IMG/VR virus record: IMGVR_UViG_3300045596_000160
Location: 1 to 36,800 of that record
Source: a virus
DNA: 36,800 nt
Reading direction: 5' to 3' (one strand)
In this document: positions 2,215 to 14,024 of the stretch, piece after piece
Layout of the letters: each line of letters starts with the position of its first letter
Numbering within the stretch: position 1 is the stretch's first letter
Translations under genes and position numbers: made by a program
The notes under the pieces: model-generated
The model's input: only the letters and a program-made list of their open reading frames with translations
Told to the model about the DNA's origin: nothing
The model's database searches: none

Positions 2215-3381
2215 TCACATCTGCGGGTTTGCCCGTTGCGGTGACATGGTGGGAAGGGCGGAAAAGGAGCGCCCCAGCCTCTCGAGGGCCTGCCTGTCAC
2301 CGGAGAGCAAGGCATGCGAGTAGACGTCTGCCGTCGTTGACTCCCGGGCATGGCCCAGGTGGCGGGAGACCACCGCCAAGGGAGTTCCTGCCGCGAGCAT
2401 GAGTGAGGCATTGGTATGCCTGAGGTCGTGGAACTTAGAGACGTTTAGCCCGAGCTCGCCGGAAAGCTGACGGAAGTTCAACTGGAGCCAGTTGGTGGTT
2501 GTCAGAGAGCCGTCCAGGGAAAGGAGTGGGCTCTCAGATGAAAGCGTCCCGAGGCGGGACTGCTGCCAAAGAATATGCGCAGCCACAACCTGCTGCCAGG
2601 AGGCGGGAAGGTCTATGCTGCGCCTGCTTGAGGTCGTCTTGGGCCGATCCTGCCTCACAACCCCGCGCTTCGTGCGGATGGCCGTTCCCGCGACGTGTAT
2701 GGTGCCGGCTATGGCTGAGTAGTCGCGCACGCGCAACGCGCAGACCTCGCCGTTTCTGAGCCCAAGGTAAAGACCTGCCCAGCAGCCGAAGGCCAGGCTT
2801 CTCGACCTCACGTCCTCGTCTTGGCCAAGCTGGGCCCTCATCCAGCCTATGAGGCGGGCTATGCTCATCTCGTCTAGAGGCGTCACCTCGCTTTTCTCGT
2901 AGCGTGGACGCGAGACGCCCCGCACGGGGTTGTCCTCGCGTATCCCATGCTCGTCGATCATCCAGTCAAAGGCGGCACCTAGGATGGAGATGATCCCGTT
3001 TACGTAGTTGCCGGACAGAGGCCTGTCGAGGAGGTCCCGGACAAGCCTCGCTACGTCCTGGCGCGTCACGTCTGTGGCCACGGGCTGTCTGATGCTTGCT
3101 CCCACGAGCCGAAACATCGAGCGGTACTTCTTGAGGCTTTGGGCGGCCAGGCCTTCCACCTTCCTTGCAGCGAGGTATTGTGCGAGCTGGTCTTGTAGCA
3201 GATAGGGTGTCTTTTGGCCTTTGGCCCAAAGCAGTGCCTGGGCCATCGCCTCGTCGCGCGTGAGCTCTTTCGGCAGCCTATGTGTCCTGCGCAGGCGCCT
3301 CCTGCTTTGTAGGTCACGTCCCCAGTCGGCAAACACCTTCCACGCGTCGCTGTCCTTTGAGACCGTGATCTTTGGCTCCAT
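2215..3381 (-). CDS. int: Tyrosine recombinase / phage integrase (Int1)
   Basis: Catalytic signature present: GLRNGEVCAL (Arg I), HDLRHTNAS (H-x-x-R), LGHARE (His), DVYSH (Tyr). Start moved to the MEPKITV ATG at 3381, which has GGGAGGA 8 nt upstream. The longer track ORF (to 3420) would run into the terminator hairpin. Confidence 0.9.
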   Translation of the reverse strand: MEPKITVSKDSDAWKVFADWGRDLQSRRRLRRTHRLPKELTRDEAMAQALLWAKGQKTPYLLQDQLAQYLAARKVEGLAAQSLKKYRSMFRLVGASIRQPVATDVTRQDVARLVRDLLDRPLSGNYVNGIISILGAAFDWMIDEHGIREDNPVRGVSRPRYEKSEVTPLDEMSIARLIGWMRAQLGQDEDVRSRSLAFGCWAGLYLGLRNGEVCALRVRDYSAIAGTIHVAGTAIRTKRGVVRQDRPKTTSSRRSIDLPASWQQVVAAHILWQQSRLGTLSSESPLLSLDGSLTTTNWLQLNFRQLSGELGLNVSKFHDLRHTNASLMLAAGTPLAVVSRHLGHARESTTADVYSHALLSGDRQALERLGRSFSALPTMSPQRANPQM

Positions 3382-3403
3382 ATCCTGTCTTCCTCCCTTC
3401 TGA

Positions 3404-3437
3404 GGAAAAGAAGAAGACACCTGGGACAGGTGTCTTC
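3404..3437 (-). terminator. Rho-independent terminator immediately upstream of the int1 SD
   Basis: Perfect 11-bp stem GAAGACACCTG / CAGGTGTCTTC (3413..3437) with a 3-nt loop. It is followed on the minus strand by TTCTTTTCC. Confidence 0.6.
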
Positions 3438-4775: not shown

Positions 4776-4892
4776 ATTCATACCTCCTCTAAGGTTGTTT
4801 TTGGCTACGGCCTCTAACAGCTGCAACTGTTAAGGGGCCAACTATTTAGTTATGGGTGATTGATCTTGCTTTAGTGAACTGTGAGGAAACAA

Positions 4893-5555
4893 ATGCCCTC
4901 AATAGATCCAGTCGTCTTTGCCGCTCTGACAAGTGGATTGCCAGTTATTATTTCATCAGTCATAACAAAGGTTTTGCCGTCTCCTGCGCCTGTGAACAAG
5001 TGGCTAAAAAAGGCGAGAGAACTCTCTGAACTTTATGCCTCACTTCCCAATACTACCAATGAAGGTGTAGAAGCAAAAAAAGCAACAGAGCTTTTATCCA
5101 ACGAAATATCGAAAAATGTTCTTCGCGGTCTCAATTATCAATACATTGATGGTGATTTTAGGTATGATCCACCAATGATTGAGTCTCTTAGCCCAAGCGT
5201 TGTAATTTCTATTGTATTGATATCACTTTGGGCTCTTATTGCTATATCCACAGGATATTGGGGATTTTTAATCATATCGATAATTGCGGTGTCTGTTGGA
5301 CTGTTAATTGGGCGTTTTATACCCCATATGATAAAATTTTTAATTCTTAAAGTGCGTGTGTCATGGTACCAAAAAAAGATAAGTAAACTTAAGTTAGAGC
5401 TTACATCCGAAGAAGAGATACTTTCTAAAGCAGACGAAAAGATTTTTAGTTTTAATAAACGACTTAATGAATTAGAGAGTAGGTTAGATACAATCGATAA
5501 ACCAGAGTCTCTAGCTCATGATAAAGTTGTAAGGGAAAATCTGAATCCCAGTTAG
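4893..5555 (+). CDS. Membrane protein (about 3 TM helices) with a C-terminal coiled coil; moron-like
   Basis: Hydrophobic segments: VVFAALTSGLPVIISSVITKVL, VVISIVLISLWALIAIS, GFLIISIIAVSVGLLIGRF. Heptad-like tail: KISKLKLELTSEEEILSKADEKIFSFNKRLNELESRLD. GAGGAAA SD lies before the ATG at 4893. It is the only plus-strand gene among minus-strand genes and is very AT-rich. Confidence 0.65.
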   Translation: MPSIDPVVFAALTSGLPVIISSVITKVLPSPAPVNKWLKKARELSELYASLPNTTNEGVEAKKATELLSNEISKNVLRGLNYQYIDGDFRYDPPMIESLSPSVVISIVLISLWALIAISTGYWGFLIISIIAVSVGLLIGRFIPHMIKFLILKVRVSWYQKKISKLKLELTSEEEILSKADEKIFSFNKRLNELESRLDTIDKPESLAHDKVVRENLNPS

Positions 5556-5925: not shown

Positions 5926-6138
5926 TTAGGCGGTGAGCTTCGGCTTTGTATGGATGCCCATAAGCTCATCAAATGAGCATCCATATAGATGGAGCATCAT
6001 CACTATTGCTCCTGCGCGAGGTTCACGGCTCCCGTCTTCAAATCCACTTAATGTCGATTGAGAAACTCCAAGCTCTTTCGCTACTTCAACCTGTGTGAGC
6101 CCCGCATTTTTACGAAAGACAGCAAAGTTTTGTTTCAT
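5926..6138 (-). CDS. XRE-family HTH regulator (leftward arm of the switch)
   Basis: FRKNAGLTQVEVAKELGVSQSTLSGFEDGSREP is a canonical HTH_3 motif. Start set to the MKQNFAV ATG at 6138, which has a GGGGAGG SD. Confidence 0.85.
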   Translation of the reverse strand: MKQNFAVFRKNAGLTQVEVAKELGVSQSTLSGFEDGSREPRAGAIVMMLHLYGCSFDELMGIHTKPKLTA

Positions 6139-6170
6139 CCGACCCAACACCTCCCCTCTTAATTTCGATA

Positions 6171-6245
6171 ACAAAAATATCCCTCTAATAGATATCTGTC
6201 AAGGGGATATCTGTTAAAAAGATATTTTTGTTGACAAATATCTGT
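6171..6245. promoter_or_regulatory. Operator cluster of the genetic switch
   Basis: ATATCTGT occurs at 6192..6199, 6207..6214 and 6238..6245. A perfect 11-bp inverted repeat, ACAAAAATATC (6171..6181) / GATATTTTTGT (6221..6231), overlaps the leftward -10 and abuts/overlaps the first base of the rightward -35 (6231). Confidence 0.5.
6174..6202 (-). promoter_or_regulatory. Leftward sigma-70-like promoter
   Basis: On the minus strand: TTGACA (6202..6197), 17 nt, TATTTT (6179..6174). About 35 nt upstream of the XRE(-) start. Confidence 0.5.
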
Positions 6246-6258
6246 ACGGGGATATATT
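6231..6258 (+). promoter_or_regulatory. Rightward sigma-70-like promoter
   Basis: TTGACA (6231..6236), 16 nt, TATATT (6253..6258). About 45 nt upstream of the XRE(+) ATG. Confidence 0.5.
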
Positions 6259-6302: not shown

Positions 6303-6530
6303 ATGAAAGAGAAATTCAATTGCAAACAGTTTGGCGCTCGCCTTAAACAGGCAAGAAAAGACCTTGGTTTGACACAAACACAAGCTGCTGCGTTAACTGG
6401 TGTCAGTCAGGGGAATATCAGCGACTTTGAGTCTGGGAATTCTGAACCTATGGCATCTACTATTGTCAGCTTTTCGAAAACTTATGGCGTCAGCGGTGAA
6501 TGGCTTCTTGGGGTTAGCGACAAGAAATAA
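6303..6530 (+). CDS. XRE-family HTH regulator (rightward arm of the switch)
   Basis: LKQARKDLGLTQTQAAALTGVSQGNISDFESGNSEP is a canonical HTH_3 motif. 75 aa. Confidence 0.85.
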   Translation: MKEKFNCKQFGARLKQARKDLGLTQTQAAALTGVSQGNISDFESGNSEPMASTIVSFSKTYGVSGEWLLGVSDKK

Positions 6531-6894: not shown

Positions 6895-6925
6895 GTGTCA
6901 AATATGGTGTCAAAAGTAGTGTCAA
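6895..6925 (+). repeat. attP right arm: three direct GTGTCAA repeats; the last one abuts the int2 ATG
   Basis: GTGTCAA at 6895, 6907 and 6919 (12-bp spacing). Confidence 0.6.
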
Positions 6926-8040
6926 TGGAAGGTCATTTAATGGAAGTTGGAAGCGAATTTGTTCGCAAACGTGGCAACCGCTGGCAAATGGGAATCCACT
7001 ACAGGGCTGATGCTAATGACAAATGGCACTTGAAGTCAAAAACATGCGATGCCAAAACTAAGCGTGAGGCAAAAGAATGCCTAAGGCAATGGCACACAAT
7101 CTTTGAGGCAAAGAACAGCGATACAGTGGCTATCCACGTTGCTGACTATGTAGACAAGTACATCGACCTCAAGGAGGCTTCACACGCCATTCAGCCAAAC
7201 ACTGTCGAAGGCTATCACTATGCGGCGATCTATATCCGCAAAGCGTTCGCATCCACTCCCCTAAACAGCCTCACAGCCAAAGACGTACAAAAGTGGGAGG
7301 CGTCCATACTTGCCTCCGGCAAATCTGTTGAAACCGTTATGAAGGCGCACAGGCTGCTGAAATCTGCAATGACGTATGCCGTGGAAGTCGACGATATACG
7401 TAAGAACCCAATGGCAGCGGTAAAACCACCGAAGATGGTACATCGTCGCCCCAACTCCCTCGATACTGCCACGCGCAAGAGGCTCATGGAGTCGCTCGAC
7501 ATGATGGGTAACTCCCCTGTCACGATAGCCGCGTGGATTGCACTTTGTGGCGGCCTGCGCGAGGGTGAGGTATGCGGCCTCAAATGGGATGACGTTGATA
7601 TGAAGGACGGCACGCTATGGGTCCGTCGCTCGATCGCCCACACGCGAGGCGGGACATACGTCAAGGAGCCTAAGACGGGGCGTATACGAGACGTGCCCAT
7701 CACCGCCACGCTCATGAGCCACCTCAAAGCATGGCGCGAATGCAGCACGTCAACCTATGTCATAGGGCAAGGTGCCGACTACCATAACTCAGCCATGCTC
7801 GGAAAGGAATGGCGCATTATCTCGCGGACCCTCAACCTTATCGGTACCGAGGGGAGACGCTGCACATTTCACGACCTCCGTCATACCTTCGCTACCGCAG
7901 CCATCGCGGCGGGTGTCGATGTAAAGACCGTGAGCTCAATTCTTGGCCATGCAAACGCGGCGATGACGCTCAACGTTTACGCGAGCGCGGACCCCGATGC
8001 GAAAAAACGCGCCGCTGACATAATCGAGCAGGCGATATGA
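6925..8040 (+). CDS. int: Tyrosine recombinase / phage integrase (Int2)
   Basis: GLREGEVCGL (Arg I), HDLRHTFAT (H-x-x-R), LGHANAAMTLNVYAS (His, Tyr). Start set to the first ATG (MEGHLMEV, 6925). The track's GTG start at 6895 lies inside the arm repeats. Confidence 0.9.
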   Translation: MEGHLMEVGSEFVRKRGNRWQMGIHYRADANDKWHLKSKTCDAKTKREAKECLRQWHTIFEAKNSDTVAIHVADYVDKYIDLKEASHAIQPNTVEGYHYAAIYIRKAFASTPLNSLTAKDVQKWEASILASGKSVETVMKAHRLLKSAMTYAVEVDDIRKNPMAAVKPPKMVHRRPNSLDTATRKRLMESLDMMGNSPVTIAAWIALCGGLREGEVCGLKWDDVDMKDGTLWVRRSIAHTRGGTYVKEPKTGRIRDVPITATLMSHLKAWRECSTSTYVIGQGADYHNSAMLGKEWRIISRTLNLIGTEGRRCTFHDLRHTFATAAIAAGVDVKTVSSILGHANAAMTLNVYASADPDAKKRAADIIEQAI

Positions 8041-8106
8041 GCGTAAATGTCTACTATGTTGATATTAAGTTCAGATAGCTGCTAAAAAACATTGAAGGGA
8101 TAAATA

Positions 8107-8670
8107 ATGGGGGATCATTTTAAATCTGCAACTAAAGGCAGTAAGGCAATAATGAGTGAAAAGGCAGCCCTGCACAAAAAGCATAAGCAAGAACTCTCTA
8201 CAGGTATTCATGTCACATCAGGAAAGAAGTTCATCCCGACTACTCTAGGCAGAGCAACGATGCGCCAACAAGCAGATGGACTCATTTATTTTGATAAAGA
8301 GCCCGATGTGTTTTATAAACTCATTGATTTTGAGTGGGATGGACCGAGCTATAAGACTGTTACCCATACAGACACCAAGGGAACGACGCGTGGGAGATCA
8401 AAACGCACGGGAAGGCTACTTGGAGCTGCAGTTGGAACCATGCTCGCGCCTGGTATAGGTACTGCTATCGGTGCAGGTGTTGGTACCGGTAACAAAAAGT
8501 CAAAAGGGAAAACGCATGAACACTCCGTCTCATATGACGAAGAGGTTGAAGTGAGCTCCCCGGCAGCTATCACACTTGAAAAAGTGGACACTGAAGAGAA
8601 GCTGCGCATCACCATTGATTGCAACACAAAAGTCGGAAACACCATAAAAAATATGGCGCTCTCAGAATGA
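8107..8670 (+). CDS. Hypothetical protein with a central glycine-zipper segment
   Basis: 187 aa. LLGAAVGTMLAPGIGTAIGAGVGTG has a GxxxG-type zipper. Basic flanks (RGRSKRTGR / NKKSKGK). First gene after int2, same strand. Confidence 0.6.
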   Translation: MGDHFKSATKGSKAIMSEKAALHKKHKQELSTGIHVTSGKKFIPTTLGRATMRQQADGLIYFDKEPDVFYKLIDFEWDGPSYKTVTHTDTKGTTRGRSKRTGRLLGAAVGTMLAPGIGTAIGAGVGTGNKKSKGKTHEHSVSYDEEVEVSSPAAITLEKVDTEEKLRITIDCNTKVGNTIKNMALSE

Positions 8671-8726
8671 CTCTCATTTGATAACAACAGAAATTCCATG
8701 GTAAGTCATAAAAATAAGGGTTAAAC

Positions 8727-9635
8727 ATGAAAAACGATGATGATATTTTTGACGATGAAGAAGACGACCCTTATGGCTTTCCTGGGGTGACCATTACTGC
8801 AGGAACATTGGATGGTCTCAACAAATTGCTTTCAATCCCCAAAGATAAAGTTATGGCAATAGATACAGAGACCACGGGTATAGATCCAAAAAAGGATGAA
8901 GTTCTATCCCTTTCGATAGTTGACGGAAATGGATCTGTAGTTTTTGATAGCCTCATTAAACCAGACCATAGAAAACGATGGCCAAACGCAACTAAAATAA
9001 ATGGGATAACATGGAAAGATGTCAAAGACAAGCCTACTCTGCTTGACTATAAAGACGAGCTATCAAAGCTCGCCTCAAAATGTGAGCTTGTAGTCGGATA
9101 CAACATAAAATTTGATCTTGCCATGTTATACGAAGGTGGTATCAGTGACTTCCCAAGTATAAAAAACTTCGATGTCATGGAAGAATATGCTCCCGTCCGC
9201 GGATCATGGGATGACTACCATCAAGATTATAGGTGGTGCAAGCTAAGCACCTGTGCAGGGCATTACCACATCAAATTTGATCCACATAAATCCAGCGAGG
9301 ATGCACGGGCAACCATGGAGTGTTTCTATGCTCTTCTCGCTGACGAAAAATATATAGATCCTCTAAAAGTAGCTTCTGAAAAAGAAAAAGCATCCGAAGA
9401 AAAACAAAGAGAAAATCAGAATTATAAAAACAATGAAGAACAATCTACTAAACCTAGTCAAATTAAAGATACAATTCGACTGATATTTAAACTATCCGCT
9501 TTTGCGCTAGGATTTATGGCACTTATATCGTTGCCATCAGGCAATGGGACTAGCACTTCTATATACATGGTCTTTTGTCTTATCTTTGCAGTGTTAGCAC
9601 ACGCTTTAAATACACGTAAAAGCAGTAAAAAGTAA
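8727..9635 (+). CDS. DEDDh (DnaQ/RNase T-like) 3'-5' exonuclease with a charged linker and two C-terminal TM helices
   Basis: Exo I: MAIDTETTG. Exo II: VVGYNIKFDLAML. Exo III: HKSSEDARATMECF. These are followed by EKEKASEEKQRENQNYKNNEEQ and then the hydrophobic segments LIFKLSAFALGFMALISLP and IYMVFCLIFAVLAHAL. Confidence 0.85.
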   Translation: MKNDDDIFDDEEDDPYGFPGVTITAGTLDGLNKLLSIPKDKVMAIDTETTGIDPKKDEVLSLSIVDGNGSVVFDSLIKPDHRKRWPNATKINGITWKDVKDKPTLLDYKDELSKLASKCELVVGYNIKFDLAMLYEGGISDFPSIKNFDVMEEYAPVRGSWDDYHQDYRWCKLSTCAGHYHIKFDPHKSSEDARATMECFYALLADEKYIDPLKVASEKEKASEEKQRENQNYKNNEEQSTKPSQIKDTIRLIFKLSAFALGFMALISLPSGNGTSTSIYMVFCLIFAVLAHALNTRKSSKK

Positions 9636-9975
9636 AAACACTTTATTTTAAATTTCTAAGCTTGTTGCAATTATGGTTGCTGTGTATATGAGCATGTTCA
9701 GCCGGGCTTACGATCATTATGTTTTCCGGCCTGTTGTCCATCTTTATCATGGAACCGTTAACAACAGTAACACCGTGTAGCGTAATCTAGCAGGGATTAT
9801 ACATAGCGTAACGGCAGCGACAACACCAACGAGAGTGATTAGGAACGCGCTTGGGACGCAAAAGTTGCATCCGCCTCCCAATTTCGTGACGCTACGAAAT
9901 TGGTTCTCTCCACCGCTGCCCCGGTGGGTTTTCTCCCCTTCGGTTTCCTTATATCCCGCGACTGACTTAGTCCGC
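9636..9975. other. ORF-free, GC-elevated structured stretch (candidate ncRNA or decayed remnant)
   Basis: No ORF of 60 aa or more on either strand. Perfect 10-bp hairpin CCAATTTCGT/ACGAAATTGG at 9878..9903. 6-bp hairpin CCACCG/CGGTGG at 9910..9927, followed by GTTTTCT. Candidate promoter TTGTTG-17-TATATG near 9661..9689. Confidence 0.3.
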
Positions 9976-10033
9976 TAGGGTTGGGATCTGGCCTCTATGG
10001 GGCTTACAATAAGCTGTTTAACTGGGGAAATAT
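9976..10033 (+). repeat. Imperfect direct repeat, copy A (core 9993..10030)
   Basis: The 38-nt core matches 10612..10649 at 33 of 38 positions by hand alignment, with weaker similarity about 17 nt further left. On the minus strand it retains an in-frame ..FPS-stop, like the end of gene 10637..11101 (..FPR-stop). Confidence 0.75.
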
Positions 10034-10125: not shown

Positions 10126-10557
10126 ATGATCGCTAGTGGAACTTGGATTAAAGCGGAACGTAAAAAAGAAAATATGCAAGTAAGCGATCTCGCCAAACTT
10201 TCCAAATTGGACAGCGTCAGAATTGCTGAAATTGAAGAAGAAAAAAGAGTAGCTAGTCCAAGCGAAATTAAATTAATTTATAATGCGTTGGGCTCACAGC
10301 CAGAATATCCAAGACCAAAGATATGCCTCCCGCTAAATCCATTTTTAAGTGAATATTTACAGAAATATCCAGAAGAGCATGCTTGCATTGTTGGATTTAA
10401 AAAATATTTAAATAATTTTTTATATCTCTACTACGTAGGTATAAACACTAAGCATACAGAAGGGACAAGATGCGATATCGTTTTTCGCTCGACACTCAAG
10501 GAGGCTAATGACTGGAGCAGAGATCAAGGATTAACTAATTCTAGTTGCCAAAAGTGA
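10126..10557 (+). CDS. XRE-like HTH protein with an unknown C-terminal domain
   Basis: 143 aa. WIKAERKKENMQVSDLAKLSKLDSVRIAEIEEEKRVASPSEIKLIYNALG fits the HTH_3 pattern. GGAG lies before the ATG. Confidence 0.6.
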   Translation: MIASGTWIKAERKKENMQVSDLAKLSKLDSVRIAEIEEEKRVASPSEIKLIYNALGSQPEYPRPKICLPLNPFLSEYLQKYPEEHACIVGFKKYLNNFLYLYYVGINTKHTEGTRCDIVFRSTLKEANDWSRDQGLTNSSCQK

Positions 10558-10594
10558 CCCGGCAACTATAAGCTTCAAGAGTATAAAAGTTCAC

Positions 10595-10652
10595 TAAGAT
10601 TGAGATTAAGTCTCTACGGTGCTTACAACAAGCCGTTTATCTGGGGAAAGAT
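10595..10652 (+). repeat. Imperfect direct repeat, copy B (core 10612..10649); covers the last codons and 3' flank of gene 10637..11101
   Basis: See copy A. The cores start 619 bp apart. Confidence 0.75.
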
Positions 10653-11101
10653 CCTGCACGAAGTTCGACAGGGACTTTGGGCTCGTGAAGGTAACGAACA
10701 CGATTAATAATATATACTACAAGTGCTATTAAACCTACTATAAGTGCCTTTAAGGATAAGTTTACAAAAGCAATAACTACAGCAAGGGCGCAAATCGCAT
10801 ACTGAAGGACATCCCAATTGAAATCAGAACATCCAAGAAGGCATTCCTCGTAGCCTTTCGGTGTGATTTTATAACTCATATCTCTAATTTTGCCAACATA
10901 AAAATCCTTAGGTTCATCATTTTTTTTCACTATTTTTTTTAATGTCGAGACATCTTTGATGTAACCAGCATCAATAAAGCGATCTATCGCGCCTGTAACG
11001 TCATCTTTTTTTAGACTATATGTATCATCGGCGCTATTTTCATGGCGCCTAATGAGACTAGCCAGAAGGATTGTGTCGTTATATGAAAGTCTATGAGTCA
11101 T
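10637..11101 (-). CDS. Membrane-tethered protein: N-terminal wHTH-like domain plus two C-terminal TM helices
   Basis: 154 aa. ILLASLIRR...GAIDRFIDAGYIKD...YKITPKGYEE looks MarR/PadR-like. Hydrophobic segment: VLQYAICALAVVIAFVNLSLKALIVGLIALVVYII. Confidence 0.55.
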   Translation of the reverse strand: MTHRLSYNDTILLASLIRRHENSADDTYSLKKDDVTGAIDRFIDAGYIKDVSTLKKIVKKNDEPKDFYVGKIRDMSYKITPKGYEECLLGCSDFNWDVLQYAICALAVVIAFVNLSLKALIVGLIALVVYIINRVRYLHEPKVPVELRAGSFPR

Positions 11102-12623: not shown

Positions 12624-14024
12624 TCAACAATAAATTTTGCTAAAGAGCTTTCTATCTAGTTGGTTGATGCTGCCATATTCCATTCTATAGGTGAATAATT
12701 CTGATTCCAATGCGGCTGTTTCTTTATTATCACAAAAGAGATATGCACAGAGAAGATTAAGATAGATATCTGCATCAGAAAGGGAAGAACTACCGGCTAA
12801 AGCAGCACCGGCTATGGATTTGCTTTTGTCTGAAAAGAAGAGGAGCCCTTCCGTATACTTCCACAGGAGACCAAAATCTTTCTTGGTTGCCATCTCATGC
12901 CAATTAAGCTCTTCCCCTGTCAATTGAGCGGCTACTACTACTGGGAAGAGCTGATCTTCTATAAAACCTATAAGACTACTGCTAGGTCGCTCCTCAAGGA
13001 CATGTCTACTGAGGTCAATTTCAGAAATTAGCCTGTTTGTATCACGCATAGAGAGAGATTTTACATCGATAATTTCTGATATCTGTTTGTTGATTATTGT
13101 ACCATCCGCGTTAAAGTGACCGGTTTTACAAAGGTATTTATTCCCGTCGACACGATTGAGATGTAAAGGCGACAGATCGAAGAAGCGGTTCAGATAGCGA
13201 TGCGCATCGAACCCCTCGCCATAGAAGTTCCCGACAGCCTTCTCGAGCTGTGTTAGACAGGTCGAGTAGACGACGATGACCCTATCATTTCGGGAGATAA
13301 ACTTCATCTCGTCAAGTAGCCTCAGGGCGAACCTCGGTTCACAGCGGTCGAGTTCATCAACGAATAAAACAAGTCGGTCACCAACATCCTTGAGCAACGC
13401 GTCAACATATTTGACCAAGACATCCTCAAGTTTCTTGCGTTTGTCAAATGACTCTACCAAACTTTTGATACCAGAAGACTCCGCTGCTCTGCTAGCATCA
13501 TCGACCATATCTGCAGCAGCCTTCGTTGTAACACCTGCCAACGGATTTATAAGACCGACAATAGGAGAGATGAGATCAATTACACTGGACGCACGATTAA
13601 GCAAATCGCTTACACTGCTTCCAGTGGTATCGGTAGCTAGATCCAAGGGGTGCTCGGCGCACATAGTCCCGACCAGAGCAATAAGGGGGTCGGGGAAGGT
13701 GTCTACATCCCACGCGTTGAAGTAGACAGGAAGGTAGTTCTTTTCGACTTTTGGTCCAAGCGATTTTTCTTTTCCAATCAACCCAGCAAGCTCTTCATAG
13801 GACTCCTCAAGCTTGTCGTTCTCATGCTGGAGCAACATCTCGACTTGCTTGACGAAGAAGGTCTTGCCTGACCCCCATGGTCCATCTATACACAGAGAAT
13901 AGCCACCCTCTATTTCATCAAGTATTCCGATGAAGGACGCTATATCCTCGTCGCGATCTAATTCGTTATTAGTCATACTCTCGAGTAACTTTTTGCTGGT
14001 CGGCAACTCATCGATTCTCTTCAT
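12624..14024 (-). CDS. KAP-family P-loop NTPase
   Basis: 466 aa. Walker A: CIDGPWGSGKTFFVKQ. Walker B: LVLFVDELDRCEPRFALRLLDEMKFI (the hhhhDxLDRC signature typical of KAP NTPases). No TM insert was evident by eye. Confidence 0.8.
   Translation of the reverse strand: MKRIDELPTSKKLLESMTNNELDRDEDIASFIGILDEIEGGYSLCIDGPWGSGKTFFVKQVEMLLQHENDKLEESYEELAGLIGKEKSLGPKVEKNYLPVYFNAWDVDTFPDPLIALVGTMCAEHPLDLATDTTGSSVSDLLNRASSVIDLISPIVGLINPLAGVTTKAAADMVDDASRAAESSGIKSLVESFDKRKKLEDVLVKYVDALLKDVGDRLVLFVDELDRCEPRFALRLLDEMKFISRNDRVIVVYSTCLTQLEKAVGNFYGEGFDAHRYLNRFFDLSPLHLNRVDGNKYLCKTGHFNADGTIINKQISEIIDVKSLSMRDTNRLISEIDLSRHVLEERPSSSLIGFIEDQLFPVVVAAQLTGEELNWHEMATKKDFGLLWKYTEGLLFFSDKSKSIAGAALAGSSSLSDADIYLNLLCAYLFCDNKETAALESELFTYRMEYGSINQLDRKLFSKIYC

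Follow-up and report, generated by a model that had tools for sequence, protein, structure and literature searches.

Introduction

Defence by a membrane-localised nuclease is a known kind of system. SNIPE, a membrane-bound nuclease of the GIY-YIG type, cleaves lambda DNA as it is injected, spares the DNA of an induced prophage, and is toxic once its transmembrane (TM) segment has been removed (Saxton et al., Nature 2026; PMC13190303). Its homologues have one TM segment in 59% of cases and two in 7%, and their anchor sequences are poorly conserved (PMC13190303). Mpr of Mycobacterium smegmatis is a membrane-anchored 3′–5′ DNA exonuclease needed for defence against D29, and is proposed to degrade the incoming linear genome (PMC12596739). 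In mammals, TREX1, a tail-anchored DEDDh 3′–5′ DNA exonuclease, clears cytosolic DNA (PMC11904002, PMC5957452). Here we describe gpB, a protein of 302 residues encoded at 8727..9635 (+ strand) of a phage genome, IMG/VR virus record IMGVR_UViG_3300045596_000160, positions 1 to 36,800 of which are the whole stretch analysed (hereafter, the window). gpB is a predicted tail-anchored DEDDh 3′–5′ exonuclease and, as far as found, this form of membrane-localised nuclease, in the repressor–integrase slot of prophages, is new.

DEDDh exonucleases also occur in CRISPR systems, where stand-alone examples have been described as widespread ancillary components (PMC10284694). Studies of Cas2-fused DEDDh or DnaQ members have shown them to trim the 3′ overhangs of DNA (PMC10284694, PMC10470216), and those trimmed by the Cas2-fused DnaQ of PDB entry 8h18 belong to prespacers (PMC10470216).

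gpB is predicted to share with SNIPE the design of a single protein in which a cytoplasm-facing nuclease is carried on a membrane anchor, and a spatial logic for separating self from non-self is proposed for both. The two are nevertheless non-homologous. SNIPE has an N-terminal TM segment, DUF4041 and a GIY-YIG endonuclease, and its function has been demonstrated, whereas gpB has an N-terminal DEDDh exonuclease, a stalk and a predicted C-terminal anchor, and its function is one that we infer. Neither DUF4041 nor GIY-YIG is present in gpB, for which Pfam gives RNase_T/DNA_pol_A_exo1 only. Mpr, unlike gpB, is anchored at the N-terminus, contains DUF4352, has a nuclease region unlike any known nuclease family, and is encoded by a chromosomal gene. 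TREX1 is closest in predicted architecture, having an N-terminal DEDDh domain directed to the cytosol and a C-terminal tail anchor, but it is a eukaryotic protein of the ER membrane. The sequence and profile matches of gpB at E ≤ 1e-3 do not include it, so the resemblance is one of convergent architecture and not of close homology. None of SNIPE, Mpr and TREX1 is a close homologue of gpB. The closest homologous group is that of the Cas-associated DEDDh/DnaQ proteins (stand-alone in type I-E, or as Cas2-DEDDh and Cas2-DnaQ fusions; PDB 8h18, 8fy9), which have the same catalytic motifs. They differ from gpB in being soluble proteins of 187–251 residues encoded in cas operons; gpB has a stalk and a predicted anchor, and its context is that of repressor and integrase.

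In temperate phages of Gram-positive bacteria, the slot between repressor and integrase is a classic site of superinfection-exclusion genes. Lactococcal Sie2009 and Ltp of S. thermophilus phage TP-J34 are single membrane-associated genes of the lysogeny module, expressed in the lysogen and proposed or shown to block DNA entry. Proteins of this type are small non-enzymatic membrane proteins or lipoproteins, whereas gpB would act catalytically on the DNA itself.

A first-pass annotation of the window, made from the letters alone, had picked out gpB and the gene preceding it, gpA, as a candidate two-gene defence or exclusion module. Its reading of the individual genes has largely stood, while the pairing of the two has not.

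The catalytic domain of gpB

gpB matches RNase_T (PF00929) with E 3e-15 over residues 44–200, above the gathering score. The three DnaQ/RNase T motifs reported at first pass (DTE, NxxxD and HxxxxD) are intact, as D46-T-E48 (Exo I), N126xxxD130 (Exo II) and H187xxxxD192 (Exo III), and the five catalytic residues D46, E48, D130, H187 and D192 are invariant in 39 homologues. Their codons, all on the + strand, are at 8862-8864, 8868-8870, 9114-9116, 9285-9287 and 9300-9302, respectively. The catalytic domain comprises residues 28–204 (8808..9338, +), as delimited by AlphaFold2 (AF2), Foldseek and the invariant residues.

The AF2 model, generated from the alignment of 39 sequences, has a predicted local distance difference test score (pLDDT) of 91 and a predicted template modelling score (pTM) of 0.76, and its pLDDT by block is 94–98 over residues 21–240. 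Foldseek matches it to the exonuclease of S. aureus DinG, the exonuclease of PolC, RNase T, Cas2-DnaQ, epsilon and ExoX, with E 4e-9 to 1e-7 and a probability of 1.00; SDN1 is also among the fold matches. The best profile match is the PolC-type exonuclease 2p1j (E 6e-21). The Cas2-fused DnaQ 8h18, from the type I-E system of S. thermophilus, matches with E 4e-13, and its identity of 26–27% is the highest among the top fold-search matches listed. Its motifs and predicted fold place gpB in the DEDDh (DnaQ/RNase T, PF00929) exonuclease superfamily. The protein is predicted to have 3′–5′ exonuclease activity, with DNA as the probable substrate because the nearest structures, profiles and clade relatives are DNA-acting DEDDh enzymes.

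The ratio of non-synonymous to synonymous substitution rates (dN/dS), calculated against a related locus (L184; our numbering of loci, L, and proteins, P, is used where they have to be told apart), is 0.072 for the whole gene, 0.042 for the catalytic domain, 0.15 for the stalk and 0.16 for the hydrophobic tail, values that denote purifying selection.

Exonucleases of the Pol III epsilon or PolC type are fused to, or encoded with, a replicative polymerase. gpB is neither, and the neighbours of its relatives are a repressor and an integrase. There is no polymerase gene anywhere in the 36.8-kb genome, as the first reading had noted, the replication genes being a DnaD-like loader and an AAA ATPase only.

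Residues 1–27 (window 8727-8807) form a strongly acidic N-terminal extension, MKNDDDIFDDEEDDPYGFPG, which is modelled with low confidence. The extension is confined to gpB and its two nearest relatives (P0002, P0003).

The stalk and the predicted membrane anchor

The catalytic domain is followed by a charged α-helical stalk, residues 207–248 (9345..9470, +), about 46% of which is K, R, D or E, and then by a predicted membrane hairpin (9471..9608, +). The hairpin consists of TM1 at approximately residues 249–270, a neutral loop SGNGT, TM2 at residues 276–294, and a basic tail NTRKSSKK. As used here for gpB, 'transmembrane' is a reading from Kyte-Doolittle hydropathy, from the helices of the model and from the family-wide conservation of the feature. 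Hydropathy locates two C-terminal hydrophobic segments, at 252–270 and 276–294, with scores of 1.91 and 1.97. AF2 predicts a single unbroken helix from 207 to 268, in which the stalk runs into the first hydrophobic segment, then a short loop and a helix from 276 to 300. The charged linker and two C-terminal TM helices of the first-pass annotation are therefore predicted by hydropathy, by the AF2 helices and by family conservation. Its remark that such exonucleases are normally soluble was too strong, human TREX1 being a tail-anchored DEDDh exonuclease (PMC11904002).

The 99 best homologues in a large protein database (P0001–P0099) include 62 with a single hydrophobic segment at the C-terminus and 24 with a pair (86/99). 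The sequences of these segments are mutually unrelated. The median linker before them is 44 residues long, with 40% of it charged. When 1.84 billion cluster representatives were scanned exhaustively with HMMER, 261 proteins reached E ≤ 1e-30; a TM tail is present in 42 of the top 50 representatives and in 91 of the top 150, and it is seen at only 4 of 128 loci of distant DEDDh homologues. Since the tail is common in the family and rare in distant homologues, and since the TM region has a dN/dS of 0.16, the membrane tether is, by sequence comparison, a selected trait of the family or clade.

The pattern of charges fits the positive-inside rule: there is no N-terminal signal peptide, and a K/R-rich flank precedes TM1. 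Family members with a single TM segment have a median of 7 residues after it, and in those with two the loop is short and neutral and the C-terminal tail basic. For a tail anchor, which combines a C-terminal TM segment, no signal peptide and a cytosolic bulk, the hydropathy, predicted helices and charge pattern agree across the 86 homologues. The catalytic domain of gpB is accordingly predicted to face the cytoplasm, insertion and orientation both being read from these features.

Two variations within the family were observed. Long TM-tailed members of 380–760 residues (P0069, P0073-P0077, P0143, P0151, P0208) have an extra 100–400 residues between the exonuclease and the anchor, for which Pfam gives no match, and in long members of 400–810 residues it likewise finds nothing besides the exonuclease; a group of about 400 residues (P0069, P0073, P0077) shares a conserved block, e.g. 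'LRLGEVTRGKTKG..YEC'. Soluble members of 203–214 residues, in the IMG/VR contigs L093 and L094, adjoin a large tail-fibre-like gene, which in L093 contains FNIII-A_GpJ and collagen repeats. Phage copies are thus not all tethered, nor all in a lysogeny module.

Kinship with CRISPR-associated exonucleases

The view that the locus is no named defence system agrees with PADLOC, in which gpB matches only a Cas-associated DEDDh profile and the exonuclease half of the candidate system PDC-S48. The best match is the Cas-associated profile (PDLC01247; E 1.5e-29, 101 bits), which is covered over its full 139 positions. TM-tailed members of the family score 84–117 bits on this profile, and the Cas-adjacent proteins of L021 and L024 score 109–110.

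The closest soluble relatives of gpB are 187–251 residues long and score approximately 220–230 bits on the family hidden Markov model (HMM), compared to ≤130 for other soluble phage exonucleases. The relatives in Olsenella, Collinsella and Aveggerthella are directly upstream of cas3, which is followed by cse1. The loci concerned are L016, L019, L021, L024 and L031, from Collinsella, Atopobiaceae, Olsenella and Aveggerthella; at a further locus, in Alistipes (L025), the soluble exonuclease adjoins cas3 in divergent orientation. From this adjacency to cas3 and cse1, which is seen for the soluble relatives only, they can be identified as stand-alone DEDDh exonucleases accessory to type I-E systems. 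The scanned open reading frames (ORFs) of the window include no cas gene, and the neighbours of gpB there are int, gpA and a helix-turn-helix (HTH) gene.

In a neighbour-joining tree of 173 catalytic domains, a single clade of 131 takes in the Cas group and 100 of the 101 TM-tailed sequences. The Cas group appears nested in the TM-tailed clade, with weak bootstrap values (51, 37 and 45 of 100), and we therefore limit the claim to that of one family, and claim neither a branching order nor a direction of transfer. On sequence grounds, the TM-tailed and the Cas-associated DEDDh exonucleases are one family.

PDC-S48 was considered as a name for this family and rejected. Its profiles match gpB with E 2.8e-13, over approximately positions 7–200 of 411 (or 21–215 of 512), and in gpB and 10 relatives, including long forms, it is the N-terminal exonuclease part alone that matches. 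The C-terminal half that defines PDC-S48 is absent from gpB and the relatives tested. No paper mentioning PDC-S48 was found. A literature search for TM-anchored DEDDh exonucleases in prophages likewise found nothing relevant, in a coverage that leaves out most subscription journals. The tail-anchored DEDDh exonucleases of the prophage repressor–integrase slot are apparently a sizeable and undescribed family.

Position between repressor and integrase

The position of the gene was surveyed in 20 independent TM-tailed loci, the lineage of the window being excluded. In 15 of these the exonuclease is directly upstream of a tyrosine or serine integrase (L001, L004, L008, L009, L012, L013, L015, L026, L088, L089, L091, L092, L178, L180, L182), and in 14 of the 15 it is also just downstream of a cI-like gene, itself divergent from a cro-like gene. 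Most loci have a gap of at most about 50 nt between cI and the exonuclease, the longest being about 124 nt, and in L013 and L182 the genes overlap. The repressor of L008, L009, L015 and L026 is of the HTH+Peptidase_S24 type, and the corresponding gene of L180 has a Peptidase_S24 match only. Named hosts are mostly Coriobacteriia (Collinsella, Lancefieldella, relatives of Olsenella/Thermophilibacter, Atopobiaceae, Slackia), with some gut Firmicutes; L008 is from Collinsella vaginalis and L009 from Lancefieldella rimae ATCC 49626.

Other genes are found in the same gap, downstream of the exonuclease: HicA/HicB in L180 (6965-7652), and DUF2806, a 105-residue protein and Abi_2 in L182 (2032-4376). 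The repressor–integrase gap is a cargo hot spot, in which single genes (exonuclease, gpA, HicAB, Abi_2) are swapped.

In the window, gpB is on the lysogeny strand after int, and the initial placing of it among the lysogen-side cargo is borne out by its relatives in the repressor–integrase slot. From this position, gpB would be expected to be expressed in lysogens. The conserved context also makes it a credible candidate for an exclusion or defence gene, as had been suggested at first pass, for gpB alone.

Proposed function

On the basis of these observations, we propose that gpB is a lysogen-expressed, cytoplasm-facing, tail-anchored 3′–5′ DNA exonuclease which attacks DNA entering at the membrane, and we give this a probability of about one half. 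The protein would be made in the lysogen from the lysogeny-strand operon, as a single-gene accessory function, and would be held at the cytoplasmic face of the membrane by its C-terminal tail anchor and charged helical stalk of about 40 residues. There it would wait, and attack the free 3′ ends of entering DNA, whether that of a superinfecting phage or other linear or single-stranded DNA. Cohesive or recombinogenic 3′ ends would be lost through such trimming, leaving a genome that would either fail to circularise or be degraded. Since neither the chromosome nor the resident prophage has free ends at the membrane, both would be spared. What is proposed is superinfection exclusion or entry defence by catalytic means, an exclusion phenotype being suggested by analogy.

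Several points weigh against this proposal. The window's own gpB comes after int and gpA instead of immediately after cI, and the promoter search gave none for it. Close relatives have lost gpB, which fits an accessory gene but shows that it is dispensable. Membrane insertion is read from hydropathy and helices only, and the two segments are moderately hydrophobic (1.9–2.0). A 3′–5′ exonuclease requires an accessible 3′ end, which entering phage DNA may not offer at the membrane. Kinship with the CRISPR adaptation exonucleases allows a CRISPR-related role instead. Finally, the best single-sequence match in the PDB is ISG20 (E 6e-7), which prefers RNA, so that RNA might be the substrate of gpB.

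A wider and more tentative suggestion is that temperate phages took up a prespacer-trimming exonuclease of type I-E and added to it a stalk and a tail anchor. The product would be a stand-alone, sequence-independent exonuclease at the gate of entry in lysogens of gut Coriobacteriia and Firmicutes, removing the 3′ ends of whatever DNA crosses the membrane. It might then be the counterpart of TREX1 in bacteria and, after SNIPE, a second way, this time exonucleolytic, of recognising non-self by its location.

Of the alternatives, the one that survives best, though still unlikely, is an abortive-infection or toxic effector, in which a nuclease restrained by the membrane would be released or activated on infection, degrade host or phage nucleic acids, and kill the cell. 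The slot is common to Abi_2 and HicAB, and the toxicity of SNIPE without its TM segment indicates that tethering can restrain a nuclease. However, gpB has no recognisable sensor or regulatory domain, the extensions of the long forms being without a Pfam match, and the tail of many members is too short to accommodate regulation; nothing nearby encodes a protease or a mechanism of release, and an intact circular chromosome is no substrate for an exonuclease.

It is rather improbable that gpB is a counter-measure against CRISPR, that is, a captured type I-E adaptation exonuclease which over-trims prespacers or titrates Cas1-Cas2 and so prevents the acquisition of spacers against its own prophage. 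This would leave the membrane tether, the defining feature of the family, without a role, and the invariant catalytic residues argue against a pure decoy. The adjacency of the closest soluble relatives to cas3/cse1 in Olsenella, Collinsella and Alistipes speaks for it, as do the similar scores of TM-tailed and Cas-adjacent proteins on the Cas-associated profile, and expression from a prophage fits the need to avoid self-targeting; but the family is also found in Firmicutes prophages and in varied contexts, and its branching relative to the Cas group has weak bootstrap support (37–51%).

Equally doubtful is an enzyme acting on RNA (membrane-proximal transcripts, small RNAs or nucleotide signals) or an accessory to proofreading or repair of phage DNA. 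Such roles are favoured by the ISG20 match, by RNase T and SDN1 among the fold matches, by the PolC exonuclease domain as best profile, and by the assignment of gpB to PHROG 192, labelled 'DNA polymerase exonuclease subunit'. They are hard to reconcile with a genome that has no polymerase, with a location in the lysogeny-strand repressor–integrase slot and not in the replication module, and with the loss of gpB from close relatives without other change. The relatives at profile level and in the nearest clade act on DNA. We therefore retain the exonuclease directed at entering DNA as the preferred reading.

gpA and gpB as independent cargoes

The first-pass annotation had treated gpB as one half of a pair, with gpA as its partner or sensor. 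The gene layout it gave is confirmed: gpA (8107..8670, +; 187 residues) comes directly after the integrase and is separated by 56 nt from gpB, on the same strand. Both genes are AT-rich, as stated there, with a GC content of 0.457 (gpA) and 0.387 (gpB) compared to 0.536 for int and 0.531 for the whole genome.

Co-occurrence was surveyed from both sides, and the pair was found in the lineage of the window only. From the exonuclease side, 167 loci of exonuclease homologues were fetched and the gpA-family HMM was run over all ORFs within ±8 kb; it matched the window alone. From the gpA side, the exonuclease HMM gave no match in approximately 32 gpA-family loci. Outside the window, an exonuclease beside gpA occurs only in three short contigs (L184-186) fetched via the exonuclease (P0002). 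Their block of int 3′ end, gpA and gpB is 82% identical in nucleotides to that of the window; they belong to the window's own lineage, and the linkage there is by descent.

Close relatives define an exonuclease cassette at 8680..9934 (+), the limits of which are set by its presence or absence. The flanks of L168-170 are 96% identical to those of L184, and a deletion of 1,326 nt has removed the exonuclease, leaving a remnant of gpB that consists of the ribosome-binding site, the ATG and about 15 codons, after which the sequence jumps to approximately 9930 (L168). In L191-192, where gpA is 94% identical, there is no remnant of gpB; homology with the window ends at 8679, 9 nt past the gpA stop codon, and restarts at 9935. 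gpA is intact in all of these relatives despite the absence of the exonuclease and is under purifying selection, with a dN/dS of 0.05 at a dS of about 0.8.

Because the pair is restricted to one lineage, gpB has been lost where gpA was kept, and gpA recurs alone, the sequence comparisons indicate that gpA and gpB are cargoes of one gene each, independent of one another and occupying a common slot. That they form a two-gene defence or exclusion system, with the zipper protein as partner or sensor of the membrane nuclease, is very improbable: although they are adjacent on one strand with no terminator seen between them, are both AT-rich cargo and both predicted to be membrane-associated, and recur with int in L184-186, that recurrence is by descent, neither survey paired them elsewhere, relatives keep gpA without the cassette, and in other prophages each gene alone fills the slot between cI and integrase.

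gpA itself belongs to phrog_4431 (E 4e-24; residues 8–183 against profile positions 13–181 of 184), a PHROG with no assigned function. The GxxxG zipper between basic patches noted at first pass is present: the zipper, RLLGAAVGTMLAPGIGTAIGAGVGTGNKK, forms a core at residues ~99–131 (8401..8499, +) with K/R on both sides, and G102, R103, G106, G110, G118, G122, G126, G128, N129 and K130 are invariant in 14 homologues. Pfam gives sub-threshold matches only, to DUF1269 (17.7 bits, cutoff 26.9) and Gly-zipper_YMGG (13.3 bits, cutoff 28.9). As the GxxxG repeats are visible and their glycines invariant, though the Pfam scores are under the cutoff, the relation of gpA to the glycine-zipper membrane protein families (PF13441, DUF1269) is one of sequence resemblance and not of membership. 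gpA is probably membrane-associated.

The AF2 model of gpA (pLDDT 67) has a β-rich domain, made up of residues 30–92 and 138–185, and a low-confidence insert, 91–138, which holds the zipper. Foldseek found nothing in the PDB below E 0.9, with only faint PH-domain-like similarities. An assignment of function from structure was not made, the model being mediocre and the structural neighbours not significant. About half of the gpA homologues have an additional C-terminal SHOCT domain. In L189, L193, L194, L196, L198 and L208 a homologue lies alone in the gap from a cI-like gene to a tyrosine integrase; in L174-177 the homologues are reverse-oriented morons within a structural module, and in L171-173 they are chromosomal genes that stand by themselves. 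gpA is a single-gene cargo of prophages that recurs and is under selection.

Layout of the phage genome

The window is a complete temperate siphovirus genome with a terminal repeat of 127 nt, and encodes terminase, portal, capsid, major tail, tape measure and endolysin, in addition to the loader and ATPase mentioned above. At the nucleotide level the locus has no match among deposited phages, and elsewhere in the genome there is only a 264-nt match in the tape measure gene, to Microbacterium phages.

The genetic switch is near 6200, in a region of divergent HTH genes and promoter-like sites. The cro-like HTH gene (5926..6174, −), of the HTH seed family, is the first gene of the lytic strand. 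The cI-like HTH gene (6303..6530, +), an HTH family member, heads the lysogeny strand, on which it is followed by the tyrosine integrase int (6895..8040, +; PF00589, E 1.1e-25; the int2 of the first-pass annotation), gpA, gpB and a further HTH gene. All lytic and structural genes are on the minus strand. Between the cro-like and cI-like genes there are divergent consensus-type promoter matches at 6202-6174 (−) and 6231-6258 (+). No promoter-like site is found 5′ of the start of gpA or gpB, and the sole one in 8041-9635 falls inside gpB. A terminator-like hairpin and T-run at 9909..9928 (+), a consensus match only, would end both the int–gpA–gpB unit and the cassette. Promoter-like and terminator-like sites in the region are no more numerous than the shuffled expectation. 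The 490-nt gap 3′ of gpB contains no tRNA and no Rfam family.

A 65-nt direct repeat, at 9969..10033 (+) and 10588-10652, flanks the HTH gene at 10126-10557, which is the next cargo gene. The two copies are 77% identical, and the first begins about 35 nt past the downstream edge of the exonuclease cassette. L168 and L192 each have one copy of the repeat, which matches both copies of the window. The repeat may be an element of cassette exchange or recombination, or a conserved regulatory or terminator element. The differing left flank of L184 was considered as an attachment junction (attP), and this was rejected, as mosaicism explains the flank.

The region from 4.5 to 13 kb is AT-rich, with a GC content of 0.37–0.49 compared to 0.51–0.62 in the remaining genome. 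Within it are two predicted membrane proteins for which no family match was obtained: one of 224 residues (4881-5555, +), with several hydrophobic segments and a coiled-coil-like tail, and one of 154 residues (10637-11101, −), with two hydrophobic segments. At the edge of this cargo region, just past the endolysin, there is a KAP-family P-loop NTPase (12624-14024, −; PF07693, 2e-21), which could be another accessory or defence-type gene.

A second tyrosine integrase (2215-3420, −; PF00589, 2e-14) lies within the early lytic-strand operon. An integrase is found at the equivalent place in L001-L003, L178 and L180, and is near a ParB_N protein in L001-L003 and L178. This suggests that it is a conserved second recombinase of these phages, with a role perhaps in dimer resolution or in a plasmid-like state.

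Conclusions

If the proposal made here is true, gpB would be a mechanistically distinct addition to a very new class of defence, in which non-self is sensed by the location of DNA and not by its identity. It would be an exonuclease working on DNA ends, compared to the endonuclease SNIPE, published in 2026. It would also provide an evolutionary link between the enzymes of CRISPR adaptation and prophage-encoded exclusion, and a bacterial parallel of mammalian TREX1. The family is compact, consisting of a single gene of 240–400 residues with clear catalytic residues and an anchor that can be removed. It is common in prophages of the Coriobacteriia and Firmicutes of the human and animal gut, where the biology of phage and host is poorly charted, and the repressor–integrase gap of these prophages is a useful place to mine for further functions.

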